A stretch of 64,000 bases of DNA, taken from Candidatus Kerfeldbacteria bacterium (lineage in GTDB: Bacteria; Patescibacteriota; Patescibacteriia; UBA10025; JAHIVO01). Positions 6,120-61,081 of this stretch are shown here, in pieces. The stretch's first letter is position 1; each line of letters begins with the position of its first letter. The DNA lies in contig CP181398.1 in the NCBI GenBank assembly GCA_047946875.1, forward strand, positions 143,154 through 207,153. The letters run 5' to 3'. A program made the translations under genes and the position numbers. The notes beneath the pieces were generated by a model that saw nothing but the letters and a program-made list of their open reading frames with translations, was not told where the DNA came from and did not search any database.

Positions 6120-6509
6120 ATGAAAATAATTGGAGGAAATAATATTCCACCACCAGGAGGTTCGCAAGGACCGCCAGGATCAGGGGGGAGATCAGGAAAA
6201 CCAGAACAGATAAAGATAGATGCCAAATGTACTATCTGTGGTAGTCTATATGACTTCGGTAAATTGGAAGTAATACAGGAAGAAGAAGGCGCAACATTGA
6301 TGTATATCAAATGTTCTGTCTGCCAAAGCGCCGCTCTATCGATAGTGGCTATTGGATCATTCGGGATCAAAGTATCGAGTGTAATCACAGATCTGGAAAA
6401 AGATGAAGTTATGCATTTTCAAGAAGAGAGATCAGTACAGAGTGAAGATGTTTTAGCTCTACATGAGGAGTTAGAAATTACAGATAATTTTTTAGAAGAG
6501 ATTAATTAA
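6120..6509 (+). CDS. Zinc-ribbon protein with a Gly/Pro-rich N-terminus, inserted in the heat-shock operon
   Basis: The ATG at 6120 follows GGAGG-poor AT-rich spacing. The track ORF starts at a TTG at 6096. Contains CTICGS...CSVCQS (CxxC-x23-CxxC) and an acidic C-terminus. Lies between hsp20 and dnaK. Confidence 0.6.
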   Translation: MKIIGGNNIPPPGGSQGPPGSGGRSGKPEQIKIDAKCTICGSLYDFGKLEVIQEEEGATLMYIKCSVCQSAALSIVAIGSFGIKVSSVITDLEKDEVMHFQEERSVQSEDVLALHEELEITDNFLEEIN

Positions 6510-6556: not shown

Positions 6557-8533
6557 ATGAGTAAAATACTCGGAATTGACTTAGGTACTACTAACTCAGC
6601 TATGGCAATAATTGAGGGCGGAGAACCAAAAGTATTAGAAAATAAGGAGGGCAACAGAACTACACCGTCAGTGGTAGCTATTACCAAGACAGGAGAGCGT
6701 GTTGTTGGGCAGATTGCCAAAAGACAAGCAGTAACTAATCCAGAGAATACAATCTATTCTGTGAAAAGGTTGATTGGTCGTCATTGGAATGATGATGAAG
6801 TACAGCATGATGTAAAAACAATGCCTTACAAAATCGTTCAAGCAGGAGAAGGTCTTAAAGTGGCTATGAACGGTAAAGATCAAACTCCTCAGGAAGTTTC
6901 AGCAATGATTCTACAGAAGCTTAAGGCTGATGCAGAAGCTAAGTTGGGCGAGAAGATAGAAGAGGCAGTTATTACTGTGCCAGCTTATTTTGATGATGCA
7001 CAGCGCCAAGCTACCAAAGATGCTGGTGAGATTGCAGGTCTGAAAGTAAAACGTATTATCAATGAGCCAACCGCAGCTGCTCTAGCTTATGGTTTTGATA
7101 AGAAAAAAGATCAGCAAATTGCTGTTTATGATCTTGGTGGTGGTACTTTTGATATCTCTATCTTAGACGTAACCGCCGATACTGTTGAGGTTAAATCTAC
7201 CAATGGTGACACTCATCTTGGTGGTGATGATTTTGATAAGAAAATTATTGACTGGATGATAGATGAATTCAAGAAAGATCAAGGAATTGATTTATCCAAC
7301 GACAATATGGCTTTACAGAGGTTGAAAGAAGCAGCTGAGAAAGCCAAAGTAGAACTATCAACTGCTACAGACACAGAAATCAACTTACCATTCGTCACAA
7401 CTGACGATACTGGCCCTAAGCATATGGTTATGAAGATGACTCGTGCACAATTAGAAGAACTAGTTAGTGAACTTATCGAGCAAACTATGGAGCCAGTTAA
7501 GAAAGCATTGGAAGATGCTAAATTAAAAGCTTCAGACATCGAAGAAGTTATCATGGTCGGTGGTATGACTCGTATGCCAAAAGTATTGGAGACTGTAGAG
7601 AAATTCTTCGGCAAGAAACCTCACATCGGTGTTAATCCTGATGAGGTTGTAGCCTTGGGTGCAGCTGTACAAGCTGGTGTTATGCAAGGTGAAGTTAAAG
7701 ACGTCTTGTTATTAGACATTACTCCATTGACTCTAGGTATCGAGACATTAGGTAGTGTTTCTACTCCATTGATCGAGAAGAATACAACTATCCCTACTTC
7801 CAAATCTCAAATTTTCTCAACTGCTGCAGATAATCAAACATCCGTAGAAATCCACGTATTACAAGGTGAGAGATCTATGGCTGGTGATAACAAAACATTA
7901 GGTAGATTTATCTTAGCTGGTATTCCACCATCTCCTAGAGGTGTGCCACAAGTAGAGGTATCTTTCGATATCGATGCTAATGGTATCTTGAATGTGAAAG
8001 CCGTGGACAAAGCTTCTGGTAAAGAACAATCCATCACTATCACTGCTTCATCTGGTCTATCTAAAGATGAAGTAGAGAAGATGAAACAAGATGCCAAAGC
8101 TCATGAAGCAGAGGATGCTAAAAAGAAAGAAGGAGTTGAGACAAAAAACCAAGCAGAATCATTAGTCTTCACCGCAGAGAAGTCATTGAAAGATGCAGGT
8201 GATAAGGTTAAAGATGAAGTGAAAAAAGAAGTAAATGAAAAGATCGAAGCCCTTAAGAAGTTGAAAGATAGCGATGATTTATCAGCTATTAAGAAAGCTA
8301 CTGAGGAATTATCCGTAGCTATGCAACAGATTGGTGCTGCCATGAATGAGGCTCAGCAAAAGGCTGACGCTGCAAAGCCTAAGGAAGGTGATAAAAAAGA
8401 TCCTGAAACAAGTTCAGGAGGTAATGGTAAAGATAAAGGACCAGTAGATGCAGAGTTTGAAGATGTGAAGAAAGATGGAGAAAAGAAAGAGGATGATAAA
8501 AAGGAAGAAGAGAAAAAAGATGATAAAAAGTAA
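6557..8533 (+). CDS. dnaK: Chaperone DnaK (Hsp70)
   Basis: [17 protein letters not shown] and VGGMTRMP signatures. Lys/Glu-rich C-terminal tail. RBS AAAGGAA upstream. Confidence 0.97.
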
Positions 8534-8545
8534 TTAGTTTAAATA

Positions 8546-8577
8546 GCGCGGGGCATTTGCCCCGCGTGATTTGTATA
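8546..8577 (+). terminator. Intrinsic terminator after dnaK
   Basis: GCGCGGGGC-attt-GCCCCGCG hairpin followed by a T-rich tract. Confidence 0.7.
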
Positions 8578-8613: not shown

Positions 8614-9516
8614 ATGGAAAAAAATGAAAATTTAATATCAAAAAATATTGTAGTTATTATTGTATTTGTATTTGGGATTTTTATGCTTGGCGCGCTGGTA
8701 TACGATGCCTTTACTTCAAAAACATTAAGCGCAAGAGAAAGTACACTTATTTCAATTTTTAGTTCTTTTTTAATTGCACAAGGTTTTTACATTTTTGGTA
8801 AAACATCATCACGTATAGAAGCAATGGAAGGTTTTAAAGGGGAAACACAGAAAGCTTATCGTCGTTCAGAAATTATTAAAAAGAGTTCTGAAACCATACA
8901 GGCAATGTTGAGTTCACGAATGGGTGTATATAAAGCAAAAAAAGAATTGAATAATTCTGATCGAGACGCAATTCTAGAGATTTTTAGAAGTGGAATATTA
9001 CAAATGGACAGCTTAATTGATCATTTAAATGCTTCAATGAAGGATTGGGCAGACATTATTCCTGAATTTGTGGACAAAAGAAAAGAAGTAAATAAAAAAA
9101 TTGCAGATATAAGAGATGAATTAAATAAACAAAGAATCACTTTTTTAGAGGAAGTTGATAAAGTTAAAAAAGCAACTGAAAAGAGTGATGGGGAAAAGAA
9201 AAATGAGATTGATATATTAAAAACAAAAATAGGTGCACTTGAATCTGAAAAGTATTCAGAAATTAAACAGATAGATCCTCTGGATTCATTAGTATCCTCA
9301 CCAAGCGGAATGGGAGTTGTCTATAGTAATGCAGATAATGTTAGAATATTAAATTCAAATGAAGGTATTTTACCGAGAAGTTTTGTAGATGATTCTTTAA
9401 TTTCATCAGAAAATATGTTTCAATCTCGTGTCCCAGATTTAACAAAAGTTGAACCAAATGTAATTACTGGCATTCAAGTAAAAAAAGTTAAAAGCAAAGA
9501 AGAAACAAAGAAATAA
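8614..9516 (+). CDS. Hypothetical membrane protein with a coiled-coil region
   Basis: 300-aa ORF with one N-terminal TM and a long Lys/Glu-rich helical region. Confidence 0.6.
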   Translation: MEKNENLISKNIVVIIVFVFGIFMLGALVYDAFTSKTLSARESTLISIFSSFLIAQGFYIFGKTSSRIEAMEGFKGETQKAYRRSEIIKKSSETIQAMLSSRMGVYKAKKELNNSDRDAILEIFRSGILQMDSLIDHLNASMKDWADIIPEFVDKRKEVNKKIADIRDELNKQRITFLEEVDKVKKATEKSDGEKKNEIDILKTKIGALESEKYSEIKQIDPLDSLVSSPSGMGVVYSNADNVRILNSNEGILPRSFVDDSLISSENMFQSRVPDLTKVEPNVITGIQVKKVKSKEETKK

Positions 9517-9575
9517 TAATGAATTATCAAAGAATTAACCAAACCCTAGGAGCAGGCCTCTGTGCCTGCGACGCC

Positions 9576-9612
9576 ATAAAAAAACTGAGCGCACCCAGGG
9601 ACGGATGCGCTC
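9576..9612 (-). terminator. Rho-independent terminator on the minus strand (repeat copy 1 of 2)
   Basis: Minus-strand RNA GAGCGCA-uccgucccuggg-UGCGCUC followed by U7. The 29-nt core gcgcacccagggacggatgcgctcggagg recurs identically at 11161-11189. Confidence 0.6.
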
Positions 9613-9631
9613 GGAGGTTAATTACATACTT

Positions 9632-9771
9632 TTGTCACTTCGAACCTGCCTGCTCGCCTCGCTAAAGCTCGGACGAAGCGGGCCGGTAGGCAGGCGAAGA
9701 GAGAAGTCCTTATAACGATATTAGCATTTACTAACCTGATAAAGATCTCTCCGCTTCGGTCGAGATGACAA
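9632..9771. repeat. Long GC-rich structured intergenic element (extended member of the TTGTCA-box family / candidate sRNA)
   Basis: TTGTCAc at 9632 and ATGACAA at 9765 bracket a long imperfect hairpin: cttcg/cgaag, cctgcct/aggcagg, cgcttcg/cgaggcg. GC content is far above that of the flanks. The 73-aa minus-strand ORF track entry here is probably not coding. Confidence 0.45.
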
Positions 9772-9839: not shown

Positions 9840-10241
9840 ATGGCAAATAAAAAAATTAACCCAGTTTCCTTAAGGATACCAACAAAAGCCTATAGTCAAG
9901 GAGTTCTTGTTCCTTGCGGACAAAGTAATTTACTTTTTATTACTGGGCAGTTACCTCAAGATATTGATGGTAAAATTATCCACCAAGATGATGTAGGGGA
10001 GCAAGTTAGGCTTGTTTTTTCAAGGATTTCTGATATTTTGAAAGAAGCAGAGATGTCTTTCGATGATGTTGTGAAGCTCCAGATTTATGTGAGTGATATA
10101 GGTTCTGCAAAGACTGTATCCTCTATTAGAGATGAACTCTTTGGAGTTAGTAAACCCGCAAGCACACTTGTAGAAGTGTCAGGCTTTGTAAAAGAAGGTT
10201 GCAACGTTGAAATTGATGCCGTTGCAGCGAAGCTTGTTTAA
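9840..10241 (+). CDS. ridA: RidA/YjgF family reactive-intermediate deaminase
   Basis: GQLPQD...VRLVFSRISDILKEAEMSFDDVVKLQIYVSD...VEVSGFVKEGCNVEIDAVA matches the RidA/L-PSP fold. Confidence 0.85.
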   Translation: MANKKINPVSLRIPTKAYSQGVLVPCGQSNLLFITGQLPQDIDGKIIHQDDVGEQVRLVFSRISDILKEAEMSFDDVVKLQIYVSDIGSAKTVSSIRDELFGVSKPASTLVEVSGFVKEGCNVEIDAVAAKLV

Positions 10242-10274: not shown

Positions 10275-10342
10275 TTGTCATTGCGAGCAAAGCGAAGCAA
10301 TCTCATGAGATCACTTCGTCATTTTATTCCTCGTGATGACAA
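10275..10342. repeat. GC-rich nested-hairpin intergenic repeat, TTGTCAT-box family, copy B
   Basis: TTGTCATtgcgagcaaagcgaagcaatc...cgtgATGACAA immediately 3' of ridA. Same outer stem as copies A, C and D. Confidence 0.55.
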
Positions 10343-10359: not shown

Positions 10360-10815
10360 ATGAATTACCAAAGAATAATACAACAAATAGTTGAGCAGGC
10401 GAGAGAGTTGAAAGATATTAGCACAACAGAGAATAAAGCACGTGTGAACTATGCTTGTATTTTTTCGCAATCTAAGAAGGAATATAAGGAGTTAGAAACA
10501 GACGTGGCGCAATACGGTAAGCTAATAAAAGAAACAAAGATGGGGAATGTGTATTTAGTAGAGCCGATACAGACATGGTCTGGATTAGTAAAGATAGTAA
10601 AAATAAGAAAACCAGATCCTGAGCGACCTGAGCGGGGAGACGCTGATTTCACAGTAAGGGATTATAAGGTGTTTAAAAAAGAATATTTAGATAAGCCTGG
10701 GTTTAGTTTGATAGAACGTCCTGATATGGAAATGATAGAATTAGCTGATCCAAATTTTAATGTCTTGGCTTATTTCTCTAACCCAACACTTGGAGAGGTA
10801 TTGGGTATTAATTAA
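10360..10815 (+). CDS. Hypothetical protein
   Basis: 151-aa ORF with no recognisable motif. Confidence 0.55.
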   Translation: MNYQRIIQQIVEQARELKDISTTENKARVNYACIFSQSKKEYKELETDVAQYGKLIKETKMGNVYLVEPIQTWSGLVKIVKIRKPDPERPERGDADFTVRDYKVFKKEYLDKPGFSLIERPDMEMIELADPNFNVLAYFSNPTLGEVLGIN

Positions 10816-10852: not shown

Positions 10853-11071
10853 TTAGGCATAGTAGCACACAGTTGCCATCAGACTTATTCCGCAACAAAT
10901 TAGAGTGGCATTTCGATAGTACTTGCGAGTTCCTAGATCAATTGCCCAACGATGAAATTCATCGCAGATGCACAAGAAATAACAAATTGAGCTTACAAAA
11001 AGTACGGCAAGTCCTCCAAAAATGATAAGCGCCCATGCGGCTTCCCAAGCAGAATTGTATTCCACTATCAT
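10853..11071 (-). CDS. Small hypothetical membrane protein (72 aa, two predicted TM, Cys-rich)
   Basis: Sequence MIVEYNSAWEAAWALIIFGGLAVLFVSSICYFLCICDEF...LICCGISLMATVCYYA. Preceded on its own strand by a structured GC-rich leader plus terminator hairpin. Confidence 0.5.
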   Translation of the reverse strand: MIVEYNSAWEAAWALIIFGGLAVLFVSSICYFLCICDEFHRWAIDLGTRKYYRNATLICCGISLMATVCYYA

Positions 11072-11149: not shown

Positions 11150-11183
11150 AAAAAAAGTAGCGCACCCAGGGACGGATGCGCTC
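11150..11183 (-). terminator. Rho-independent terminator on the minus strand (repeat copy 2), in the 5' leader of the 10853..11071 gene
   Basis: Minus-strand GAGCGCA-uccgucccuggg-UGCGCU followed by U7, with the core identical to 9584-9612. Its position between a structured element and the downstream ORF suggests an attenuator. Confidence 0.55.
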
Positions 11184-11194
11184 GGAGGATTTCA

Positions 11195-11280: not shown

Positions 11281-11284
11281 TATA

Positions 11285-11359
11285 TTGACATGGATGTCTA
11301 TTCATGATATTTTGGTATATAAATAAAAACATAAATTGAACTTAAAAAAAGGATAAAAA
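11285..11359 (+). promoter_or_regulatory. Promoter/5'UTR module P1 (75-bp repeat copy 1)
   Basis: TTGACA, then a 17-bp spacer, then TG-n-TATTTT, then a conserved AT-rich leader ending in an RBS GGA. About 90% identical to 11609..11686. Confidence 0.6.
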
Positions 11360-11515
11360 ATGGCAGTAGATGATAAAAATACCGAATGTCCTCATTGTAA
11401 TGGACGTACAACCTGTACTTGCTCAAGTTGCGGAGCTTATGTCACTGGCAGGGGTGGAAAGGAATGGAAAAAGGGTATTTGCAAGGTTTGTGGTGGCTCT
11501 GGTAAAGCCAGATAA
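11360..11515 (+). CDS. Unannotated 51-aa Cys-rich miniprotein with DnaJ-type zinc-finger motifs
   Basis: Too short for the ORF track (under 60 aa). Sequence MAVDDKNTECPHCNGRTTCTCSSCGAYVTGRGGKEWKKGICKVCGGSGKAR, i.e. CxxCxG...CxxCxG...CxxCGGSG. Driven by promoter module P1 and followed by a terminator. Confidence 0.6.
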   Translation: MAVDDKNTECPHCNGRTTCTCSSCGAYVTGRGGKEWKKGICKVCGGSGKAR

Positions 11516-11551
11516 TCCTGGTAAGTAGTTTCAAAAGCTATGATAGTAACT

Positions 11552-11584
11552 CCGTTGATTAATTTTAACGGGGTTTCATTTTTT
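11552..11584 (+). terminator. Intrinsic terminator after the miniprotein gene
   Basis: CCGTT-gattaatttt-AACGG hairpin followed by gTTTCATTTTTT. Confidence 0.5.
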
Positions 11585-11608
11585 GTAAAACAAAAAATTA
11601 CAAAAGGA

Positions 11609-11686
11609 TTGACATAGACGTTTATCTATGATATTTTGGTATATAAATAAAAACATAAATTGTACGTAAAAAAAAGGAGAAAAACG
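11609..11686 (+). promoter_or_regulatory. Promoter/5'UTR module P2 (75-bp repeat copy 2)
   Basis: TTGACAtagacgtttatctatgatattttggtatataaataaaaacataaattgtacgtaaaaaaaaGGAGaaaaacgATG, a near-duplicate of P1. Confidence 0.6.
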
Positions 11687-12034
11687 ATGTCAGATATGTC
11701 TTGTATGGTACCACGTGAAAAGGTTGCATTAAGAATTACAACAGGTAATGATAATGATCAAACCGTTTATGTATTCGGTCCCCCAGACAAAAATGAATTT
11801 AGAAAGGTTCAACGAAATGACGAAAAACCTTTCACAGCTAAGATAATGGGACCAGTTGTAGATGAGATTTTGGTTGATGATGTGGTAGTGGGCATATACA
11901 CACAATTAGCTAATAAGCAGGTCCTAGCGCATAAAAAAATGCTTGAAGTGGGCACTCCAATGGGACTTTGGACTGAACCTGATGCCAAAGAAACTCGAAT
12001 TTCAAGACCTATTATCAAGATAGAGATTATTTAA
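11687..12034 (+). CDS. Hypothetical protein (116 aa)
   Basis: Start ATG at 11687, 7 nt after a GGAG RBS. The track ORF extends to 11660. Sequence MSDMSCMVPREKVALRITTGNDNDQTVYVFGPP... Confidence 0.6.
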   Translation: MSDMSCMVPREKVALRITTGNDNDQTVYVFGPPDKNEFRKVQRNDEKPFTAKIMGPVVDEILVDDVVVGIYTQLANKQVLAHKKMLEVGTPMGLWTEPDAKETRISRPIIKIEII

Positions 12035-12049
12035 ATCTTTTATCTAAAA

Positions 12050-12077
12050 CCTCCAATTTTTACTGGAGGTTTTTTTA
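12050..12077 (+). terminator. Intrinsic terminator
   Basis: CCTCCA-atttttac-TGGAGG hairpin followed by T7. Confidence 0.75.
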
Positions 12078-12102
12078 TATTTGAAAATAAGTATGTATAA
12101 AT
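12054..12102. repeat. Direct repeat DR-a (about 48 bp) flanking the metallopeptidase gene
   Basis: caatttttactggaggtttttttatatttgaaaataagtatgtataaa matches 14142..14190 (caaatttttactggaggtttttttatatgttataataagtatatatgaa). Confidence 0.6.
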
Positions 12103-12167
12103 TCTCTTGGTAATAAAAAAACACTTTAGAAAAACTAAAGTGTTTTTTATTGAAAAGTTTTTATAAT

Positions 12168-14015
12168 TTACTCCGCTATTTGAAGTAGGTCAGCGGTGGT
12201 AAATTTCTGCGATCCGCCGGTGTCTTTGTTAGTGATGGTGAGCGTGACATCTTCTTTTGTTCCGTCTGATGTTATCAGCTGCATGGTGTCAGTATCTAAG
12301 GAGTTATCACCGAGTGGGATTTTGACATGAATTTTATCTAAAGTAACTACCTTTGATGTGCCAAATGAAACGGTTGCCTCAGAGTCAATGTCAATATCGC
12401 CACCTACTAATGTTGAATCTTCTCTGGTATCTTTAAATAGAATTGTCGTGGTGGCAAACTCTGTCGTCGATGAGTATTCTTTACCGCTGATAGATATTGT
12501 GTATGTAGTATCAACTAATGATGTGTCAGTTGGTATTGTTCCTATTTGCTGTTTAATGCTTTCTATACTATAAGCTTCAGCTTTATTTTCTACTATAATA
12601 TCGATATATGAAGTTTGTTCACCGCGTGCACTGGAATACGGAGCAAGGCGATTTGTAATTTGTCGCTCATTCACAAGACCATAGCGGAAGTCTAGATTAT
12701 AGCCGCCACACATGACTGACGAATATGTCCCTTTGATATTATTTGATACATACGAACATCCATTAAAGTACCCAACATCTAACGCTTCTTTTACTTGGCC
12801 TTCAAGATCACCCCACCATAATTCCGCTACAACTACAGAACTTGCGCAGTTTGGAAAACCTGGACTATTGGATCCACTAGAGTCAATTCTTTCATCTCTG
12901 AGTAGGAAAGCTTGGTGGCCAAATTCATGATGGAAAACATGGCGAATACCGCGCACGGCCCCTTGTTCCATCTCAAGAAAATCAGTAGTCGCTATATATG
13001 AATCTCGATTGTAATGCGCATAACCGACAACCCCGTCGGGGAAGGTAGTGTTACATAGGAAAACAGGATAAACGATGCCATTACTGATACCACTCTTTTC
13101 AATCGCCCAATTGTAATGGTCAGCTCCAAATTCGCAACTTGTTAGGAGTTGCTCATTGAGGTACCAAAAATTATATTTATCTAAATTATCTTTAAGTACT
13201 TCCATTTCAGCGAATGGCTTTACCTCAGTTAGCCAGTTATATTCCGGATGGCCCGCTCCATAATATGTTAAGTTAAATGGTTCAACATTATACTGATCAT
13301 TTAAGTCGATTAACACTTTACTTTTGATTATTACCTCATTTATCGATGGCTGATCTGATCCGATAAATACGACATTTACACGATTTGCATTCTTATCATT
13401 ATGATTACTATACAACTCTTTTAATATAGGTATGCATGTACAACCATTACACTGCTCATCAAGTCCGCATCCACCATTATAATCGCATTCTTCCCCTAGT
13501 TCTGGTTGAATTTGCCCATCTCCACATGAATATTTACACGCACCATCATCACAGTACCAATAATTTCCATACCGCACCGAACAATCCGCTTCTGTAGAGC
13601 TAAATTCAGGCCCTAAAAGGGCTTCGGTTTCTTCATTAGCCTCTGTATCAATACTAGCACCACGGATGACAGGGGTATTGATTTCTGGGCTATTTGGGCA
13701 ATAATAATCAACTACATGATCGCTAGTTTCGCAGTTATCAGTGTATTTATTAATCTTTCCATAGCCATTATCAATTGTCACCCATCCATGCCTTTTAAAG
13801 GCATCTTTTCCGTCTGAATCACGGCATATTGGTGTACCACTTAAAATAGGATCAGTTTCTGAGTCCGGTCCAATTATTAATCCATACACAAGTCCACCTC
13901 CGGCGATAACGGCCGCGAGTATCATCGTAGTGAGCGCAATCATGACTGGTGTCTGGATTTTTGTTGAAGTGATTTGTTGGATTTGTTTGTTCATAGGTTT
14001 TTTCTTAGGAGGCAT
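12168..14015 (-). CDS. Membrane-anchored secreted zinc metallopeptidase (HExxH), Cys-rich
   Basis: N-terminal TM (IALTTMILAAVIAGGGLVYGLII). HEFGH motif (VFHHEFGHQAFLLRDE) with downstream Glu candidates, i.e. gluzincin-like. Many Cys pairs (CGDGQ...CDYNGGCG...CNGCTC). Confidence 0.75.
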   Translation of the reverse strand: MPPKKKPMNKQIQQITSTKIQTPVMIALTTMILAAVIAGGGLVYGLIIGPDSETDPILSGTPICRDSDGKDAFKRHGWVTIDNGYGKINKYTDNCETSDHVVDYYCPNSPEINTPVIRGASIDTEANEETEALLGPEFSSTEADCSVRYGNYWYCDDGACKYSCGDGQIQPELGEECDYNGGCGLDEQCNGCTCIPILKELYSNHNDKNANRVNVVFIGSDQPSINEVIIKSKVLIDLNDQYNVEPFNLTYYGAGHPEYNWLTEVKPFAEMEVLKDNLDKYNFWYLNEQLLTSCEFGADHYNWAIEKSGISNGIVYPVFLCNTTFPDGVVGYAHYNRDSYIATTDFLEMEQGAVRGIRHVFHHEFGHQAFLLRDERIDSSGSNSPGFPNCASSVVVAELWWGDLEGQVKEALDVGYFNGCSYVSNNIKGTYSSVMCGGYNLDFRYGLVNERQITNRLAPYSSARGEQTSYIDIIVENKAEAYSIESIKQQIGTIPTDTSLVDTTYTISISGKEYSSTTEFATTTILFKDTREDSTLVGGDIDIDSEATVSFGTSKVVTLDKIHVKIPLGDNSLDTDTMQLITSDGTKEDVTLTITNKDTGGSQKFTTADLLQIAE

Positions 14016-14141
14016 ATTGCTATAATTTAATATAATATTTTATCACTTCATTATTATACGCTAATATTACGTTAAAATCAAAAAACCCAAATTTAAAGGC
14101 TTATCAAAAAGATATAGATTATTTAGAGAATTATTAAATCT

Positions 14142-14190
14142 CAAATTTTTACTGGAGGTTTTTTTATATGTTATAATAAGTATATATGAA
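14142..14190. repeat. Direct repeat DR-b (partner of 12054..12102)
   Basis: See DR-a. Copy b lacks the left arm of the terminator hairpin and includes the ATG of the downstream HD gene. Confidence 0.6.
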
Positions 14191-14734
14191 CTACGAAAGA
14201 ATAAACCAAGCTATTGAATACGCGTCTGAAATGCATCATGATTTACGTTATAAATATAACGATAATAAGTTTCAGGTTGCTCACATTTTTTTTGTTGGTG
14301 CTATTTTGATGAAACATGGTTTTGACGATGATGTTATTATCGCTGGTTTCTTGCATGATGCGATAGAGGATACAGATGTTACCAAAGAAGATATTGAGAA
14401 AAGGTTTGGTAAAAGAGTAGCAGACTTTGTAGAGGCAGAGACAGTGGATCAGACTATTGAATGGAAGAAGAGACAGTATCTTATGCAGGATAATGTACGT
14501 AATGCTTCTCTTGAAGTTAAAGCTATCAAAACCGCTGATCAATTACATCAATTAAACTTGTTTACTGACGATAGCCATCTTGCCAGTCAGAACAACTATA
14601 TCAACCAAAAAGGTGCTAAGAAAGCTTATTGGAAATATGAGCAGTTATTAGAGGCTATTGGGACTGGTTGGTCACATCCAATCCTTGATGATGCATATGT
14701 ATTACTCAAGAAGATGAAGAAAAAATATCTTTAA
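14186..14734 (+). CDS. HD-domain (p)ppGpp hydrolase-like protein (SpoT/Mesh1-type small alarmone hydrolase)
   Basis: H..H-x22-GFLHDAIEDTDVTKEDIEKRFG ... IKTADQLHQLN, the RelA/SpoT HD hydrolase signature. No synthetase domain. 182 aa. Confidence 0.7.
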   Translation: MNYERINQAIEYASEMHHDLRYKYNDNKFQVAHIFFVGAILMKHGFDDDVIIAGFLHDAIEDTDVTKEDIEKRFGKRVADFVEAETVDQTIEWKKRQYLMQDNVRNASLEVKAIKTADQLHQLNLFTDDSHLASQNNYINQKGAKKAYWKYEQLLEAIGTGWSHPILDDAYVLLKKMKKKYL

Positions 14735-16090: not shown

Positions 16091-16288
16091 TTACGCTTTG
16101 CTGACTTTTGTAGCTGCAGGACCTTTTGGAGTATCTGAGATCTCGAAAGTAACAGCGTCACCTTCTTGAAGTTCATTATACTCGACTCCTTCCAACTCAT
16201 TTGAGTGGAAAAATAAGTCTTTGTCTTGGTCTTCAGCTGTAATAAAGCCAAAGCCTTTGTCAGTCAATTTTTTTATTGTTCCTTGCAT
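16091..16288 (-). CDS. cspA: Cold shock protein (CspA family)
   Basis: MQGTIKKLTDKGFGFITAEDQDKDLFFHSNEL..., with RNP1 (KGFGFI) and RNP2 motifs. Long 5'UTR upstream, as is typical of csp genes. Confidence 0.93.
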   Translation of the reverse strand: MQGTIKKLTDKGFGFITAEDQDKDLFFHSNELEGVEYNELQEGDAVTFEISDTPKGPAATKVSKA

Positions 16289-16937: not shown

Positions 16938-17330
16938 TTACTCGGGTACGATTTCGAAAAACTTTTTCAAATAATTCATTGAATGAGTAAAGAAGTTGGC
17001 AACATTACATTCGTAGATAATAAAGTCACCTTCTTTGTCTGCGATGCTAACGTAGTAAGTTGACCCTTTTCGGAATACCGTTTCATCACCTTGTTCAATG
17101 TTCTCTTTGCATTTGACAAGGATAACTTTAATGAAGAAGTTTTTGGATTCATCTTCTGAGAATGATACGATACCGCCACCACCCTTGTAGATATAAACAA
17201 AAGTGTCACTATTCTCAGTATCCAACTGTCGGATAAAGTAAATTTTTCCAGAGACGAATTCATAACCATCTTTGACCACCGTTTTGGTGCATTTCAGTTT
17301 TAAAGAGCTTTGGATTTTCTGCACATCCAT
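16938..17330 (-). CDS. Hypothetical protein
   Basis: 130-aa ORF on the minus strand, convergent with the 16574 gene. A GGGG loop is present. Confidence 0.55.
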   Translation of the reverse strand: MDVQKIQSSLKLKCTKTVVKDGYEFVSGKIYFIRQLDTENSDTFVYIYKGGGGIVSFSEDESKNFFIKVILVKCKENIEQGDETVFRKGSTYYVSIADKEGDFIIYECNVANFFTHSMNYLKKFFEIVPE

Positions 17331-25364: not shown

Positions 25365-27869
25365 ATGAATGTATTTGCAAATTTGATGGAAAATTCTGCT
25401 TTTCCAATTATTTTAGTTGGAATTTCTGTTTTAATTGTTGCGATAAGTTCTTTTTTAATTATTCGTCGTAACATGAGAAGTCAAAAAAAATTACCTAATG
25501 CATTGCAAAAGGTAATGTTATTGATCACTCTACCAAAAGAGTCAGAGATAAAAGAAGGAGAAAATAAACAAGAGTCTGTTGAAGAAATGTTGGTTGAGGC
25601 AGAAGCATTTTTAAATGCATTAGGCGGTATGAAGGCTCAACGTGGCGCTGCTAGTATAGTTGGAGGAAGAACTGATAATTTTTCATTTGAGATTGTTGCA
25701 TATGGAGGATTAATTTCATTTTATGTTGTTATTCCTAGATACTTACGTGATTATATGGAACAACATATTAGTGCTCAATATCCAGATGCGCAAATTGAAG
25801 AAACGGAAGAATTCAATTTATTTAGTCCCCAAAGTAAAATTGCAGCTACTACTCTAACATTTAAAAAGCAGTACATATTTCCCATAAGAACATATCGTGA
25901 GTTAGATGTTGATCCATTAAGTTCTCTTACTAATGTTTTATCAAAAATCGCTCCAGACGAAGGTGCGGTTATTCAGTATGTTGCCAGATCAGCAAAAGCA
26001 GAATGGAGAAATTGGGGAGCTCGTGTTGCAAAAGATATTCACAATGGTAGGGCGGTAAAAGAAGCTGTCGGAAGGAATGGTTTTTTGGGATTTCTTTTTG
26101 GATTATATAGAACTTTTGTACCTGAGAAAAAAAATGAATTAGACAAACAACATCAGTTATCAGCACGTGATGAGGAAATTGTAAAAAGTTTGGAAAACAA
26201 GGTTAGTAAGGCAGGGTTAGATGTAAATATTAGAATTATCGTTTCAACAAAGTCGCAAGAAAGATCACAAAAATATTTAAAAGATATTGTTGATTCTTTT
26301 AGTCAGTATTCTTCTTTTGAATATGGTAATGGTTTCGTGAGAAATGATCCGTATTTCAAAAAAGACCAATTAATATTGGACTATATTTATCGTACATTTA
26401 ATAAGAAAAAATTGTTGGTACTTAATACAGAAGAGATGGCGAGTTTATTTCACTTTCCTTTAGTTACCACAGAAACTCCTAATATTCGTTGGTTAGTAGC
26501 ACGTAAAGCACCAGCCCCAACCAATCTACCTAAAGAAGGATTGGTATTAGGTAAGAATCTTTATCGTGGCGAAGAGCATGTCGTTCGTATTAAACCTAAG
26601 GATCGACAGAGGCATGTATATGTAATAGGTAAATCTGGTGTTGGTAAATCTGTATTATTATCGAATATGATAATCCAAGATATTATTAATGGTGAGGGAG
26701 TCGGTGTTATTGATCCACATGGAGATTTGATTAATGATATATTAGCTCATATTCCTAAAGAGCGAGCTGAAGATGTTATACATTTCAATCCATCAGATCT
26801 TGATAGACCTATGGGTTTGAATATGTTAGAGGTATCTAGTCCAGATCAAAAAGATTTTGCGGTACAAGAAATGATTTCTATTTTTTATAAATTATTTCCA
26901 CCGGAGATGATTGGGCCGATGTTTGAACATAACATGAGGAATGTTATGTTAACTTTAATGGAAGATGAAGAAAATCCTGGTACTATTACAGATATTCCAA
27001 GGATGTTTACAGATCCTGCTTTTCAAAAATATAAATTATCCAAAGTAAAAGATCATGTTGTTAGAGCTTTTTGGGAACAGGAGATGGCTAAGACTTCTGA
27101 TTTTCATAAATCAGAGATGCTAGGATATTTGATCTCAAAAGTTGGTCGTTTTGTAGAGAATAGTATGATGAGAAATATTATTGGTCAGCCAAAGTCTGGA
27201 TTCAATTTTGAAGAGGTGATGAATAACAAAAAGATATTATTGGTTAATTTATCAAAAGGTACAACTGGCGAAGTAAATAGTAGTTTGTTAGGTTTAATAT
27301 TAGTATCTAAGCTTCAGATGGCTGCAATGAAAAGAGCATCGATGGCAGAAGAAGATAGAAAAGATTTTTACTTATATATTGATGAGTTTCAAAATTTTGT
27401 TACAGACAGTATCGCTACAATTTTATCTGAAGCTAGAAAATATCGTTTGGATTTAACTATTGCACATCAATATATTGGACAGCTACTTCAAGATAATGGG
27501 GATTCTAAGATTAAAGATGCTGTATTTGGTAATGTTGGTACTATGTTGGCTTTTCGTGTAGGCGTAGATGATGCTGAAGTATTAGCAAAAGAATTTGATC
27601 CAGTATTTAATGAATTTGATGCTATTAATGTAGAGATGTATACAGCTAATGTAAAATTATTAATTGATAATACTACTTCCAAGCCATTCAATATGATGAC
27701 TTATCCGCCACAACCTGGTAATCCAGAAATAGCTAAAAAAATAATCGAATTATCTAGATTGAAGTATGGTACTGATCGTAAAGTCATCGAAGCCGCAATG
27801 GCGGAAGTATCTAAGTTGGGGAATACTAAACCAGCACAAGGTCAGGCGACTGGTGAGAAAAGTATGTAA
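25365..27869 (+). CDS. FtsK/HerA/TraD-superfamily P-loop ATPase with N-terminal TM (T4SS coupling-protein / DUF87-like)
   Basis: Walker A VYVIGKSGVGKSVLLSNM...IDPHGDL. Walker B FYLYIDEFQNF. The 400-aa N-terminal region is of unknown function. Confidence 0.65.
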   Translation: MNVFANLMENSAFPIILVGISVLIVAISSFLIIRRNMRSQKKLPNALQKVMLLITLPKESEIKEGENKQESVEEMLVEAEAFLNALGGMKAQRGAASIVGGRTDNFSFEIVAYGGLISFYVVIPRYLRDYMEQHISAQYPDAQIEETEEFNLFSPQSKIAATTLTFKKQYIFPIRTYRELDVDPLSSLTNVLSKIAPDEGAVIQYVARSAKAEWRNWGARVAKDIHNGRAVKEAVGRNGFLGFLFGLYRTFVPEKKNELDKQHQLSARDEEIVKSLENKVSKAGLDVNIRIIVSTKSQERSQKYLKDIVDSFSQYSSFEYGNGFVRNDPYFKKDQLILDYIYRTFNKKKLLVLNTEEMASLFHFPLVTTETPNIRWLVARKAPAPTNLPKEGLVLGKNLYRGEEHVVRIKPKDRQRHVYVIGKSGVGKSVLLSNMIIQDIINGEGVGVIDPHGDLINDILAHIPKERAEDVIHFNPSDLDRPMGLNMLEVSSPDQKDFAVQEMISIFYKLFPPEMIGPMFEHNMRNVMLTLMEDEENPGTITDIPRMFTDPAFQKYKLSKVKDHVVRAFWEQEMAKTSDFHKSEMLGYLISKVGRFVENSMMRNIIGQPKSGFNFEEVMNNKKILLVNLSKGTTGEVNSSLLGLILVSKLQMAAMKRASMAEEDRKDFYLYIDEFQNFVTDSIATILSEARKYRLDLTIAHQYIGQLLQDNGDSKIKDAVFGNVGTMLAFRVGVDDAEVLAKEFDPVFNEFDAINVEMYTANVKLLIDNTTSKPFNMMTYPPQPGNPEIAKKIIELSRLKYGTDRKVIEAAMAEVSKLGNTKPAQGQATGEKSM

Positions 27870-40268: not shown

Positions 40269-40790
40269 ATGATATTTAGTAATAACTGTATGAGACTACC
40301 AATAAGAAAACAAGGAAAATATTCTGATAAAAAATCAGATTTATATATAACGGAAGAAAAAGCGCAAAAGTATAAAGAGGAGCTAGATAAGCTCAAAAAA
40401 TTTTTTCAGCCACATACGATTATAGAAGTTAAGAGGCTTGCGGAGATGGGAGATTTTTCTGAGAACGCTGCCTATCAAATGGCTAAGGGGAAATTGCGAG
40501 GTATTAATTCACGAATATTAAAATTAGAGACAGCTATTAATAAAGCTATAGTTATTAAAGTAAGTAGCCAAACTAATATAATTAACATTGGTCATAGGGT
40601 TGTTGTAGAGATGGATGGAGTTAAAAAAGAATTTAAAATACTTGGTTCAGCAGAATCAGATCCAAGTAAAGGAATTATTTCGCACACTTCTCCTCTTGGT
40701 ACAGTTTTGATTGGGAAAAAAGTAAATGATATATTCAATATAGAGATCGCTAATAAAGAAGTTAAGTGTAAAATATTAAAGATTAAATAA
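40269..40790 (+). CDS. greA: Transcription elongation factor GreA
   Basis: N-terminal coiled coil with GDFSENAAYQMAKGK (the GreA GDLSENAEY motif) and a C-terminal FKBP-like domain. The true start may be the ATG at 40290. Confidence 0.85.
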   Translation: MIFSNNCMRLPIRKQGKYSDKKSDLYITEEKAQKYKEELDKLKKFFQPHTIIEVKRLAEMGDFSENAAYQMAKGKLRGINSRILKLETAINKAIVIKVSSQTNIINIGHRVVVEMDGVKKEFKILGSAESDPSKGIISHTSPLGTVLIGKKVNDIFNIEIANKEVKCKILKIK

Positions 40791-40888
40791 ACAAGCTTGT
40801 GAGTTTAGCCACAGGCTTATGTTGATTTTTGGTTGAAATATAGATAAGATAGGGGTATATTTATAAACTAATTAATTGATTCAAAGAT

Positions 40889-43609: not shown

Positions 43610-43665
43610 TAGAATAGTTTTAGATAAAAAAGCTTGTGAGTTTAGTCACAAGCTTAGGTCGATAT

Positions 43666-44115
43666 TTATATAGCACGAATGGTCGAACTGGCTAGGGGAG
43701 TGATAATACGGTTATTGTAAACCGTAAATTTTTCCCCAATTCTTCGGTGTTTCAAATCATCAGTGATTCGTAGTGCGACTACATACATAAAATCTTTGTC
43801 ACCAGGTTGGTGATGAATGACATTTGTATATCCACCGGAAAGTTGTTGGTGGACAGTATAGTGTCCATCCATCAGATCAGCTATGATAGTCGACTGGACG
43901 AAAAGGGGATACCCTTCATGCGTCAGTGATGTAGCGCCGTCTGCACCAGGGACAACTGAGTTGGAAAGTATGAAAATACCGCCAAAGACGTAGATAAAAC
44001 ATAATGCGATTAGGCATTTGTCGAATTTCGTGAACATTGCTATTGCCTCGCTTTCTTTTGTTTTTTGTTTGGAATGTGCAATATACAAATATACCCCATA
44101 CATGGGTATTGTCAA
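43666..44115 (-). CDS. Hypothetical membrane-anchored protein
   Basis: 149 aa with one TM (LIALCFIYVFGGIFILS). Confidence 0.5.
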   Translation of the reverse strand: MTIPMYGVYLYIAHSKQKTKESEAIAMFTKFDKCLIALCFIYVFGGIFILSNSVVPGADGATSLTHEGYPLFVQSTIIADLMDGHYTVHQQLSGGYTNVIHHQPGDKDFMYVVALRITDDLKHRRIGEKFTVYNNRIITPLASSTIRAI

Positions 44116-45242: not shown

Positions 45243-45256
45243 TTACATTTAGAATT

Positions 45257-45331
45257 ATGAATGGAATTTTTGGTATCAACAAATAGGTGGGGCCTACTTC
45301 GCATGATATTATAGATCAGTTGCGTTGAAAG
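45257..45331. repeat. 75-nt duplicate of the truB 5' end (t1), carrying an in-frame stop
   Basis: tATGAATGGAATTTTTGGTATCAACAAAtAGGTGGGGCCTACTTCGCATGATATTATAGATCAgTTGCGTtGAAAG versus the genuine truB start at 46476..46551. There are 3 mismatches, one of which makes AAA-TAG. Confidence 0.8.
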
Positions 45332-46475: not shown

Positions 46476-46476
46476 T

Positions 46477-47118
46477 ATGAATGGAATTTTTGGTATCAAC
46501 AAAAAGGTGGGGCCTACTTCGCATGATATTATAGATCAATTGCGTCGAAAGACAGGCATTAAAAAGATTGGACATGCTGGAACATTGGATCCTTTGGCTA
46601 GTGGTGTTTTGGTCGTGGCGATTGGAAAAGAATTTACTAGGCAGATTGATACTATCGTTAAGACTGAGAAAGAATATATAGCTAAGGTAAAATTTGGTTT
46701 TAATAGTACGACGGATGATGAAGAGGGCGAGAAAGAAGAGATAAAAATAAGCAATGAACCGACTAAAGAAGATATAGAGAAAGTATTACCAAAATTTATT
46801 GGTGAGATTAAACAAATGCCACCGGTATATAGCTCGGTGAAAGTTAGTGGTAAACCTGCTCATCGTCGAGTCAGAAAAGGAGAGGATGTGAAGTTGGGAA
46901 CTCGGGATGTATTTATTAAAAATATTGAGATACTAGATTATCAATGGCCGTATTTAGAAATCAAGATTGTGACTGGACCGGGAGTTTATATTCGTTCTCT
47001 GGCTAGAGATATTGGGAGTGAATTAAAAGTTGGTGGATATTTGAGCGGTTTGATTAGAACAAGAGTTGGGGATTATAATATAGATGATGCGGTGACGGTA
47101 GAGAAGTTTAATGGTTAA
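46477..47118 (+). CDS. truB: tRNA pseudouridine(55) synthase TruB
   Basis: GINKKVGPTSHD...GHAGTLDPLASGVL catalytic Asp motif. Confidence 0.92.
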   Translation: MNGIFGINKKVGPTSHDIIDQLRRKTGIKKIGHAGTLDPLASGVLVVAIGKEFTRQIDTIVKTEKEYIAKVKFGFNSTTDDEEGEKEEIKISNEPTKEDIEKVLPKFIGEIKQMPPVYSSVKVSGKPAHRRVRKGEDVKLGTRDVFIKNIEILDYQWPYLEIKIVTGPGVYIRSLARDIGSELKVGGYLSGLIRTRVGDYNIDDAVTVEKFNG

Positions 47119-55832: not shown

Positions 55833-55953
55833 TCATTTTGTACAAATATCGCCCTGTCTTGTTATGAGATGGGGTTTTTTTATTGACTAATATAATAAAA
55901 AAGCCTCAGGGATAAACCAAAGGCTTCTAAAAGATCAACAGGTGGAATCTAAA

Positions 55954-56232: not shown

Positions 56233-56445
56233 TTTAATTCCTCCGAGTAGGTAGATGTGAAGTCTTACTGATTTAATAATAATTGACAATAAAATCTATC
56301 ATATGTATTAACATTTGTCAATACATAATAAAAACCCTGATTATTTAGTAGTTAGGGTATTTTTATTGACCAATATAATGCAAAATGATAAGGTAATTTA
56401 ATCACAAAAAATAGAACTTTAATAACAGAAAAAAAGGAGAGAGTA

Positions 56446-60005: not shown

Positions 60006-60006
60006 T

Positions 60007-61073: not shown

Positions 61074-61081
61074 ATAGTTAT

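Follow-up and report, generated by a model that had tools for sequence, protein, structure and literature searches.

In the window analysed here (i.e., the whole stretch of 64,000 nt of Kerfeldbacteria DNA), a gene for a secreted or membrane-anchored metallopeptidase is bracketed by two copies of a composite direct repeat, and we consider it likely that this peptidase cassette was gained by an insertion with long target duplication (ILTD). An insertion of about 2 kb with target duplication had already been proposed in a sequence-only reading of this DNA, and it is favoured by the composite junction present in both copies, by their complementary decay and by the lack of the peptidase in 9 of 9 related loci carrying the downstream gene. 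A caveat is that the ~113 nt duplicated far exceed a transposase-type target duplication. ILTD has been recognised since 2000, mostly for restriction-modification genes of competent bacteria such as Helicobacter (Nobusato 2000, Gene 259:99; Furuta, Abe & Kobayashi 2010, NAR 38:2428, PMC2853133). Its signature combines target duplications longer than 30 bp (published 46–423 bp), of variable length, with no other mobile-element genes, and the repeats often span translation starts or stops, the target gene surviving and gene fusions arising too (PMC2853133; PMC3457768); neither of these two papers states a molecular mechanism. Here, the insert is 1,978 nt long and holds one gene with no Pfam or PHROG match, where the ILTD definition asks for less than 20 kb without mobile-element genes, and a repeat of more than 30 bp is found on both its sides, as in the direct-repeat criterion of Furuta et al. 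(2010).

The Direct Repeat and the Flanking Genes

The two copies of the repeat, both read on the plus strand, lie at 11988–12101 (copy A, 114 nt) and 14080–14190 (copy B, 111 nt), and align over 114 columns with 77% identity, i.e., with 23 mismatches and one 3-nt indel (self-BLAST E 3.9e-18). A repeat of 48 nt had been reported at these places; it is indeed present, and the homology is more than twice as long. Its 26-nt exact core, AATTTTTACTGGAGGTTTTTTTATAT (12055–12080 and 14144–14169), has two matches in the 64-kb window with up to three mismatches allowed, against 0.00 expected from shuffles. Lengthening the repeat leftward into the upstream gene or rightward into the downstream gene gave no significant match; an extra 12/18 match beyond a 4-nt gap at the repeat edge is suggestive, and was set aside since the extension is not significant. 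Two further public assemblies from the same population are 100% identical across the locus, which excludes an assembly artefact, and these two other assemblies of the organism hold no population variants at the locus. An Rfam scan of the window returned one tRNA only, with no match at the repeat or at the GC-rich hairpins.

Upstream of the insert is a 115-aa gene (11687–12034, plus strand; an ORF whose protein is identical to ACNFW9_00785) with no assigned function, the last 47 nt of which form the left part of copy A. Its orthologue (P0004), on contig L008 of a relative, is 76% identical at the protein level. Downstream is a gene for an HD_4-domain hydrolase (hereafter HD; 14186–14734, plus strand; PF13328, E 7.8e-15), which is conserved in the dnaK–dnaJ region of relatives, with orthologues 57–80% identical at syntenic loci. 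Copy B runs into the ATG of this gene at 14186, as had been noted earlier. A promoter-like site of HD lies at 14148–14177 on the plus strand (TTTACT, 18 nt, TG-TATAAT; consensus match), with 8 nt between its -10 box and the ATG; the -10 box, the spacing and the ATG are conserved in L013, the locus with the closest HD relative (TGTTATACTATATATATATG). This short distance from -10 box to ATG suggests that the HD mRNA may be leaderless or nearly so.

Composition and Decay of the Two Copies

Three pieces make up each copy: the 115-aa gene contributes its final 47 nt and the hairpin of its terminator, and HD contributes its -10 box and ATGAA. The duplicated stretch of ~113 nt extends from -106 to +5 relative to the HD ATG. 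These parts have separate counterparts in relatives: downstream of its 116-aa gene, L008 is orthologous to the gene 3' end and terminator pieces of the repeat, while the region upstream of HD in L013 is orthologous to its TGTTATAAT(N8)ATG module. Hence, the left two thirds of the repeat belong to the 115-aa gene and the right end to HD, each part being single-copy and orthologous in a different relative (gene end and terminator in L008, HD -10 box and ATG in L013).

The decay of the copies is complementary: copy A keeps the gene end and the terminator, and copy B keeps the promoter and the ATG. Copy A holds the functional 3' end of the 115-aa gene with its stop, followed by the intact intrinsic terminator (12046–12073, plus strand; CCTCCA/TGGAGG stem and T7, recovered by the terminator scan), of which the hairpin and T-run fold at -13.1 kcal/mol (z -4.4). 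Its HD -10 box and start are decayed, with GAAAAT in place of TATAAT and ATA in place of ATG, and the promoter scan found no promoter-like site in copy A, such a site being called only in copy B. The latter retains a functional-looking HD promoter and ATG, preceded by a dead 3' end of the 115-aa gene, with in-frame stops within the former coding part (the reading frame was checked in the sequence), and by a hairpin with a mutated left arm that folds at only -3.9 kcal/mol (z -0.7). The earlier description of an intact hairpin in copy A and a missing left arm in copy B is in keeping with the folding energies, and the hairpin of L008 (-12.4 kcal/mol) is conserved despite three base differences inside it. 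The other origin proposed at that time, recombination between pre-existing terminator-like repeats, does not fare well, for it leaves unexplained both the dead upstream 3' end in copy B and the dead HD start in copy A.

A three-way comparison with L008 assigns 12 private changes to copy B and 6 to copy A, which corresponds to ~14% and ~7% of change since the duplication, respectively. Moreover, the two copies have 10 states in common against L008, which places the duplication inside this lineage. With the copies at only 77% identity, the event is old, not recent, and the details of its junctions have eroded.

The Inserted Cassette and Its Peptidase

The inserted segment, delimited by the repeat ends (12102–14079, 1,978 nt, minus strand) and containing the gene that related loci lack, appears to be a self-contained cassette with a promoter-like site, one gene and its own strong terminator. 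The promoter-like site (14053–14081, minus strand; TTGATT, 17 nt, TATAAT) is a consensus match only, whereas the predicted terminator of the peptidase (12116–12148, minus strand) has a perfect 14-bp stem followed by a U-run (-14.2 kcal/mol, z -7.7). Between them, the 615-aa peptidase gene (12168–14015, minus strand; start at Met8, 13994, in the NCBI annotation) is supported by its ORF, homologues, profile matches and a structure model. It had been described as a membrane-anchored, Cys-rich HEFGH protein, and we find the same, with one predicted N-terminal helix (residues 22–39), 17 Cys and the HEFGH motif at 363–367. The claim that it is the only minus-strand gene of the neighbourhood needs narrowing: it is the only long one between dnaK and HD, but a 72-aa ORF (10853–11071), a cold-shock gene (16091–16288) and a 130-aa gene (16938–17330) nearby are on the minus strand too.

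A search of 1.84 billion representatives recovered 252 relatives of the peptidase, the best non-self matches being 34–36% identical, and an alignment of 30 sequences of the family shows no variation at H363, E364 and H367. The peptidase itself matches no Pfam family at E 0.01 or better, while 23 of the 30 homologues match PF09471 (best E 1.8e-9) and the family profile matches the M64-like structures PDB 3p1v (E 6e-13) and 4df9 (E 2e-12). In its AlphaFold model (pLDDT 70), the N-terminus forms a membrane anchor, ~150 aa are disordered and rich in Cys, and the C-terminal domain is rich in beta structure; a whole-chain Foldseek search with this model returned weak matches only, the best being the Amuc_1438 glycopeptidase (E 4e-4). 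As the latter search is uninformative, the assignment as a putative zinc metallopeptidase distantly related to M64 (PF09471) rests on sequence profiles. The protein resembles peptidase family M64 (IgA peptidase; PF09471; 3p1v, 4df9) in its HExxH zinc site and in the PF09471 matches of its homologues, but differs in having no Pfam match of its own and in its membrane anchor, Cys-rich disordered region and beta-rich C-terminal domain.

The suggested check of codon usage and composition gave a mixed answer. The peptidase gene is mildly atypical (codon usage z -1.4; GC 0.40 vs 0.34), but the other minus-strand genes are similar in both respects, i.e., strand is a confounder, so that composition is no proof of a foreign origin and was left out of the evidence. 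A phage origin of the insert was rejected, given that neither the repeat core nor a relative of the peptidase occurs on any viral contig and that no PHROG matches.

Loci of Related Genomes

The peptidase is absent from all nine related HD-bearing loci (L010, L011, L013, L014, L015, L016, L021, L022 and L023), which represent at least seven distinct lineages. Relatives that all carry the peptidase without repeats, together with a repeat that is simply a common terminator across the genome, had been named in advance as evidence against an insertion; instead, none of the nine loci has the gene, and the repeat has two copies in the 64-kb window. The empty site proposed as a check, in which the 115-aa gene is directly followed by HD, was not encountered in the databases searched: a scan of GTDB genomes with the HD protein returned only relatives at <=35% identity, protein searches with the 115-aa and HD proteins retrieved no such arrangement, and probing JGI metagenomes with the DNA of the predicted A/B hybrid junction gave 0 matches. 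In L008, home of the sole other 115-aa orthologue, the next gene downstream is a radical-SAM gene, not HD, and L013 has no 115-aa gene, so that the ancestral adjacency is a reconstruction, not an observation. The interval between dnaK and HD is highly variable among the relatives.

Mobile-Element Hallmarks

No terminal inverted repeats were detected at the ends of the insert, the local alignment of the left end with the reverse-complemented right end scoring 6.5 for a shuffle mean of 8.4, nor at five other bracketed inserts, the scores of which are at or below their shuffle means. Likewise, scanning the ORFs of 90 aa or more, we found no integrase, transposase or recombinase domain in the 64-kb window, and the independent insertions at the HD start have no crossover core in common, their duplication limits being different. 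The window makes up 64 kb of a 1.31-Mb genome, the rest of which may hold a recombinase acting in trans or further copies of the repeat. The hallmarks of several classes of elements are missing here: for a DNA transposon or MITE, terminal inverted repeats; for a site-specific integrative element, a tyrosine or serine recombinase gene (none within 64 kb) and a common core; and for an integron cassette array, an integrase (none in the window), the inter-cassette repeats being neighbouring gene ends that differ from pair to pair. A diversity-generating retroelement was rejected, because there is no reverse transcriptase domain and copy B has an A at only 10 of the 23 mismatches, which is not adenine-specific.

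Recurrent Duplication of the HD Gene Start

At other places of the window (9579/11150, 11284/11608, 40783/43620, 45246/46465 and 55852/56335), one to three genes stand between local direct repeats that consist of gene ends or regulatory sequence, unrelated to the present repeat and differing from pair to pair. Overall, self-BLAST of the window yields 17 direct pairs versus 2 inverted pairs, both of which are simple palindromes. The HD 5' end itself is found again twice upstream. An older pseudo-copy (ATGAATTATCAAAGAATTAACCAAACCCTAG; 9519–9549, plus strand) begins 3 nt past the stop of a 300-aa gene and has an orthologue in L011, followed by the same hairpins, while another copy (10360–10378, plus strand) is the start of a 151-aa gene (MNYQRI...), with the same start in L022; the 19-nt pattern of the HD 5' end has three matches in the window, for 0.00 expected. 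The 151-aa gene resembles HD in the N-terminal ~35 aa (E 0.004). Tandem paralogy was rejected as the source of the pseudo-copies, because the NUDIX gene and the 155-aa gene of L011 are not homologous and the 151-aa gene is HD-like in its first ~35 residues only.

Comparable arrangements exist in the relatives. L023 has a 46-nt HD 5' duplicate (3 mismatches) around a 430-aa gene, and lineage-specific HD 5' duplicates bracketing other cargo also occur in L011, L014, L015, L022 and L010; in all, at least six loci have HD 5' pseudo-copies upstream of HD, always in direct orientation. The limits of these duplications vary (-106 to +5 here, ~-2 to +43 in L023, ~-1 to +31 at 9519 of the window and in L011, ~-143 to +31 in L010), and the only sequence common to the focal event and the other HD 5' duplications is ATGAA. 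MITE-like elements with ends TTGTCAYT...ATGACAA are abundant in the interval and in relatives, where they sometimes adjoin HD 5' pseudo-copies. From these observations, we infer that the HD gene start was struck repeatedly, in about six or seven events across roughly ten lineages.

Proposed Origin and Alternative Explanations

Under ILTD, the change would be a gain, not a loss, and the ancestor within Kerfeldbacteria would have had the 115-aa gene, its terminator and HD next to each other, with the HD -10 box just past the T-run of the terminator. About 2 kb of foreign DNA, probably taken up from the environment and bringing the gene of a secreted or membrane-anchored, M64-like metallopeptidase along with a promoter and a terminator, would have entered exactly at the HD start, and ~113 nt of the target would have been duplicated, from 47 nt before the stop of the upstream gene through to base 5 of HD. 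That this duplication arose through break repair or replication is what we infer indirectly: either two single-strand breaks ~110 nt apart may have been filled in around the captured DNA, or a replication template switch may have re-entered ~110 nt upstream. Both neighbouring genes are intact because the duplicated stretch spanned the stop and terminator of one as well as the promoter and start codon of the other. Afterwards, each copy would have retained the half that was needed, i.e., gene end and terminator in copy A, promoter and ATG in copy B.

The recurrence at the HD start raises the rather unlikely possibility that Kerfeldbacteria-like CPR bacteria have a dedicated insertion process with a preference for gene starts, above all the leaderless promoter and ATG of HD beside dnaK. 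Each event would then duplicate the module of promoter and start codon, newcomers using the old copy for their expression, in some cases as N-terminal fusions (as the 151-aa gene may be), and the resident keeping a fresh copy; the outcome would be an integron-like cassette array without integrase or attC.

A Campbell-type integration, which we hold to be unlikely, would involve a circle carrying the peptidase cassette and one 113-nt junction from a sibling or related genome, a single RecA-dependent crossover leaving the homology on both sides. No dedicated enzyme would be needed to produce direct repeats of arbitrary sequence and length, the stacking of cargo beside the same conserved gene start in several lineages would be accounted for, and the RecX encoded in the window suggests that a RecA pathway exists. 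However, such a scenario requires a donor in which the cassette is already joined to a lineage-specific junction, so that the problem is only moved back a step, and no such donor or circle was found in the databases searched. The 10 states that copies A and B share against the outgroup also argue that copy B does not come from a third, more distant lineage. Finally, some of the duplications in relatives, with 26–46 nt only, are at or below the length of homology that efficient homologous recombination usually requires.

It is quite improbable that the locus is the remnant of a site-specific integration, in which an element with an attachment site overlapping the HD 5' end later lost its integrase and left its cargo between attL and attR. 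The direct orientation of all HD 5' pseudo-copies, in at least six loci, does resemble tandem accretion at a single att site, and genomic islands are known to integrate by site-specific recombinases into gene ends, tandem accretion included; integrases aiming at the 5' end of a protein gene, e.g., dusA, are known as well (PMC4482086). Nevertheless, no integrase or recombinase domain is found in the insert, within ~10 kb or across the 64-kb window, the differing duplication limits, with ATGAA alone shared by the focal event, leave no common crossover core, and the other bracketing repeats of the window are unrelated in sequence.

There may also have been no gain at all, which we regard as very improbable: the peptidase would be ancestral and lost in relatives, or the junction would have been duplicated in tandem with its inner part then replaced, or a terminator/promoter module would have been copied. 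Losses are common in the highly variable dnaK–HD interval, and an alternative by "tandem duplication followed by recombination" was put forward for patterns of this sort (PMC3457768). Yet the nine loci without the gene come from at least seven lineages, no relative of the peptidase above 36% identity was found in the search, and a loss would still need the duplication of the composite junction. As for the two other variants, the tandem route would split the ancestor's HD from its own promoter and ATG, and the reuse of a regulatory module leaves the dead coding 3' end in copy B and the dead ATG in copy A unexplained.

We give very little credence to transposition in which the cassette was mobilised in trans by an element making long, variable target duplications, as IS1630 and IS1634 of Mycoplasma are reported to do. 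IS1634 and IS1549 produce target duplications of tens to hundreds of bp. Long variable duplications by transposases are documented, those of IS1630 measuring 19–26 bp (PMC2853133); MITE-like elements are moreover abundant in the interval and in relatives, some adjoining HD 5' pseudo-copies. Against this, neither the focal insert nor the five other bracketed inserts have terminal inverted repeats, the window has no transposase domain, and the cargo differs from event to event without common end sequences. Lastly, even though terminators in AT-rich genomes resemble each other, chance similarity or a common terminator motif is practically negligible as an explanation, considering a 26-nt exact match for 0.00 expected, 114 columns at E 4e-18, a copy number of just two in 64 kb and a homology reaching into coding sequence and the HD start.

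Significance and Comparison with Known Systems

CPR bacteria have tiny genomes with few classical mobile elements. If our preferred reading, ILTD, is correct, the locus extends this type of insertion to the CPR radiation and to cargo of an ordinary kind, here a secreted or anchored peptidase. The dnaK–HD interval, where nature has provided a series of events at a single site, with differing duplication limits, could constrain the mechanism. The locus is also a clean case of a terminator/promoter junction whose duplicates kept one function each, and of a gene start that was duplicated and then taken over as the beginning of a new chimeric gene.

Like a phage moron, the insert is a single-gene unit that has a promoter-like site and a terminator of its own and runs opposite to the genes around it, but its context is chromosomal, without phage relatives, and morons are not defined by long target duplications. 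Like IS1630 (PMC2853133), IS1634 and IS1549, it is flanked by long, variable direct repeats of the target; unlike those elements, which have a transposase gene and inverted ends, it has neither. The likeness to genomic islands residing in gene ends (tRNA genes or the dusA 5' end, PMC4482086) lies in the partial duplicates of the target end that bracket the cargo and in the reuse of the site, which yields arrays of pseudo gene ends, while the differences are the lack of a recombinase gene, the lack of a fixed core and the unrelated repeats at other sites of the window.

The closest parallels are with published ILTD, in which direct repeats of more than 30 bp and variable length also flank a short, cargo-only insert without transposase, integrase or inverted ends. 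As in those cases, the repeat takes in a translational stop as well as a start, both neighbours survive, and a gene fusion arises from a duplicated gene end (here the 151-aa gene starting with the HD N-terminus); within the 64-kb window, the repeat has two copies only. In contrast to published cases, a metallopeptidase takes the place of restriction-modification genes as cargo, the host belongs to the CPR/Patescibacteria, the ancestral site is reconstructed where published cases rest on pairwise genome comparisons, and the copies are 77% identical versus mostly >90% in published tables. A last difference from published ILTD is that the same gene start appears to have been struck repeatedly in several lineages, resulting in a cassette-like array.

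Setting and Make-Up of the Repeat

The locus belongs to a metagenome-assembled genome of Candidatus Kerfeldbacteria (CPR/Patescibacteria) and lies on a 1.31-Mb contig, in a heat-shock region with the gene order hrcA, grpE, hsp20, dnaK, a variable stretch, HD_4, a second variable stretch, DUF3467 and dnaJ. Two further public assemblies from this population agree with it at 100% identity over 14-20 kb, so the structure is no assembly artefact. The peptidase matches ACNFW9_00790 and the upstream 115-aa protein ACNFW9_00785. Elsewhere in the window, an 834-aa protein (25365-27869) carries VirD4/TraG-type coupling-protein domains (T4SS-DNA_transf, TrwB_AAD_bind), which could bear on DNA transfer or uptake by the host organism.

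The direct repeat noticed around the peptidase gene in the sequence-only reading is real, with a 26-nt exact core at 12055-12080 and 14144-14169, of which the window holds no further copy at ≤3 mismatches (0.00 expected). Its extent, given there as 48 bp, proved longer: copy A spans 11988-12101 and copy B 14080-14190, aligned over 114 columns with 23 mismatches and one 3-nt indel (self-BLAST E 3.9e-18), and extension on either side of these limits uncovered no additional homology. Copy A consists of the last 47 nt of the 115-aa gene (11687-12034, +), stop codon included, the terminator hairpin and T-run of that gene (12046-12073; -13.1 kcal/mol, z -4.4), intact as first described, and 28 nt of sequence TTTGAAAATAAGTATGTATAAA. 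Copy B carries the same three parts in altered form: the formerly coding part has acquired in-frame stops, and the hairpin is indeed damaged (-3.9 kcal/mol, z -0.7), but its left arm, earlier called missing, is present with two substitutions. The last part of copy B, TGTTATAATAAGTATATATGAA, contains an extended -10 box; together with a TTTACT 18 nt upstream it makes up a promoter-like site, and the copy does run into the ATG of the HD_4-domain hydrolase gene (HD; 14186-14734, +), 8 nt after the -10 box.

The native owners of these parts can be recognised in relatives. On contig L008, a 116-aa orthologue of the 115-aa gene (76% identity) shares the 3' end sequence and the hairpin, which differs at three bases inside and still folds at -12.4 kcal/mol, while similarity to the window ends past the T-run of the terminator. 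On L013, the contig of the closest relative (identity 94% for DnaK, 88% for DnaJ, 80% for HD), the sequence upstream of HD is TGTTATACTATATATATATG, with the -10 box, spacing and ATG found in copy B. (Directly after the ATGAA of HD, L013 has a 1-nt deletion (8696-8710) that shifts the frame, the called start being 50 codons downstream; the contig name indicates 3.63x coverage, so that a sequencing error is possible in place of a true pseudogene.) Since each copy joins a piece native to the upstream gene to a piece native to the downstream gene, the sequence comparison means that the 115-aa gene and HD would once have been neighbours, their junction having then been duplicated. A three-way count against L008 (60 sites identical, 10 with A=B against L008, 12 private to B, 6 private to A) points to an old duplication within the host lineage, and decay has been faster in the copy holding more dispensable sequence.

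The Peptidase Unit

The 1,978 nt between the copies (12102-14079) are a complete minus-strand unit of one gene, comprising a promoter-like site (14081-14053; TTGATT, 17 nt, TATAAT), a 615-aa ORF (12168-14015) and a terminator (12116-12148) made of a 14-bp perfect hairpin and a U-run (-14.2 kcal/mol, z -7.7). The protein has a single N-terminal helix (residues 22-39), and its structure model comprises a low-confidence Cys-rich region, a confident catalytic domain and a C-terminal beta-rich domain. Both the Cys-rich character and the HEFGH motif read from the sequence hold, the motif lying at 363-367, inside the confidently modelled catalytic domain. The sequence alone matches no Pfam family. 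An exhaustive HMMER search returned 252 relatives, the best non-self ones at 34-36% identity; Peptidase_M64 is matched by 23 of the 30 that were aligned, H363, E364 and H367 are invariant across this alignment, and its profile matches the M64-like structures 3p1v and 4df9 (E around 1e-12). Together, these matches and the invariant residues predict a divergent membrane-anchored M64-like zinc metallopeptidase.

Related Loci

Nine related loci with an HD orthologue (57-80% identity) were compared, five of which (L010, L011, L013, L014, L021) have a recognisable dnaK and/or DUF3467 plus dnaJ in conserved order. The peptidase was found by tblastn in none of the nine, and the dnaK-HD interval has a different content in each lineage: a 59-aa ORF only (L013), three unrelated genes (L010), six genes (L011), one ORF and repeats (L014), or a 151-aa orthologue, a 113-aa gene and a small minus-strand gene (L022). 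Given this absence and variability, parsimony strongly favours a gain in the window lineage over many losses. No exact empty site, with the 115-aa gene directly followed by HD, turned up in GTDB representatives, a 5.8-billion-protein index or JGI metagenomes.

The 19-nt pattern of the HD 5' end has three matches in the window (9519, 10360, 14186), against 0.00 expected. In most related lineages, pseudo-copies of this end (ATGAACTACCAAAGAAT...) precede the true HD gene, all of them in direct orientation, and mark the borders of blocks with differing cargo. In the window they occupy 9519-9549 and 10360-10378, the latter being the start and N-terminus of a 151-aa gene whose first ~35 residues are HD-like and the remainder unlike HD. 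In relatives, they are found at 1502 in L023 (46 nt, 3 mismatches, bracketing a 430-aa gene), 6074 versus 7462 in L011, 2300 and 2599 in L014 (three copies spaced about 297 nt), 649 versus 798 in L015, 15, 907 and 1427 in L022 (four copies), and 8579 in L010 (about 130-175 nt of HD upstream sequence plus 31 nt coding). The limits of the duplicated stretch vary between these events, and such variation speaks against a recombinase acting site-specifically on a fixed core. In L010, three unrelated cargo genes preceding HD are each followed by a 38-nt sequence (CCAAACCAATTGTTTTGTGTGG...; 8480-8517, 9039-9076, 9858-9895) that also occurs upstream of HD in L016, an arrangement consistent with successive insertions that would each have duplicated the HD upstream region.

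Two kinds of element recur in the window and in relatives. A GC-rich hairpin (GAGCG-stem-loop-CGCTC, then GGAGG or GGAAA) is found in the window (9587-9612, 11159-11182), L010 (~8517-8549, ~9947-9979), L011 (~6140-6172) and L016 (~535-567), with compensatory changes at 4 of 9 pairs across six copies; it has no Rfam match and could be REP-like, a terminator or a regulatory RNA. A second covarying hairpin often precedes it (GCAGGCCTCTGTGCCTGC in the window and L010, GCCCCGCTATGCGGGGC in L011). In the window, the L-PSP gene (9840-10241) lies between two non-coding MITE-like elements (~9632-9771, ~10275-10342) whose ends are TTGTCAYT..CGA / TCG..ATGACAA; such elements are also present in relatives (L014 2500-2585 and 2680-2785, L015 ~680-775, L022 ~1455-1550, L008 ~300-360), beside HD 5' pseudo-copies.

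Other Bracketing Repeats in the Window

Self-comparison of the window gave 17 direct repeat pairs versus 2 inverted ones, both simple palindromes. Apart from coding paralogues, five more local direct pairs each surround one to three genes. (Diverged tandem coding paralogues with 60-67% nucleotide identity lie at 293-621 / 2309-2640, where the window begins, and, as a three-member family, at 59646-62592, close to its end.) The first is 9579-9617 / 11150-11188 (92% identity). The second (77 nt, 11284-11360 / 11608-11684, 86-88%) is a duplication of promoter plus ribosome-binding site from the 115-aa gene, around a Cys-rich 51-aa gene (11360-11515) with its own terminator (11548-11575); at the orthologous position, L008 has the promoter but not this gene. 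The 51-aa product contains CxxCxGxG-like motifs and shows weak similarity (E 0.009) to the zinc-finger region of DnaJ. The third pair (40783-40830 / 43620-43667, 85%) is terminator sequence bracketing a 906-aa UPF0182 gene, and another (55852-55902 / 56335-56385, 76%) consists of a terminator and promoter bracketing a 111-aa double-zinc-ribbon ORF (-). Finally, an 87-nt pair (45246-45331 / 46465-46551, 93%), made of the first 75 nt of truB and 11 nt upstream, encloses a 357-aa HATPase_c/DUF4325 (ATPase) gene (45402-46475), and a TAG now stands at codon 9 of the upstream pseudo-truB start; the arrangement has the appearance of a more recent event of the kind seen at the peptidase. Three GGTTGACAAT-like motifs lie upstream of the 357-aa gene.

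Kind of Insertion

The composite junction in both copies, their complementary decay and the absence of the peptidase from all nine relatives support the insertion with target duplication first proposed from the sequence. The duplication, the decay of the copies and the absence of the cargo from relatives are observed; the molecular route is our inference. The reading that we consider rather probable has four steps. Foreign DNA with a ready-made peptidase expression unit would have been captured at the start of HD; the capture would have proceeded by break repair or replication, independently of any recombinase, and duplicated ~113 nt of target; the event would have been tolerated because the duplication preserved the upstream gene end and terminator as well as the downstream promoter and start; and the two copies would have retained complementary halves.

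Integration of a circle carrying the junction through a Campbell-type single crossover is unlikely, as it requires a donor with the junction already attached. A decayed integrative element is distinctly improbable, with neither a recombinase nor a common core. No integrase, transposase or reverse transcriptase domain was detected in the insert, its neighbours or the other scanned ORFs of at least 90 aa in the 64-kb window. No phage connection was found. An ancestral peptidase, or a tandem duplication followed by replacement, is very improbable, being unparsimonious and splitting HD from its own start. A transposon making long target duplications and acting in trans has a slighter probability still, for the insert has no inverted repeats at its ends. 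Chance similarity has next to no probability. In length, the ~113-nt duplication far exceeds normal transposase target duplications. The mismatches between copies A and B show no adenine-specific bias.

The signature of the locus has a published counterpart in insertions with long target duplication (ILTD), i.e., cargo-only inserts between duplications >30 bp (46-423 bp in published examples, of variable length), which come mostly from naturally competent bacteria (PMC2853133; PMC3457768). The peptidase locus displays this exact signature (cargo only, long duplication, no recombinase domain in the scanned ORFs), and it extends a known but little-studied kind of insertion to a non-restriction-modification cargo and a CPR host, with the added interest of a series of such events at one gene start across lineages.
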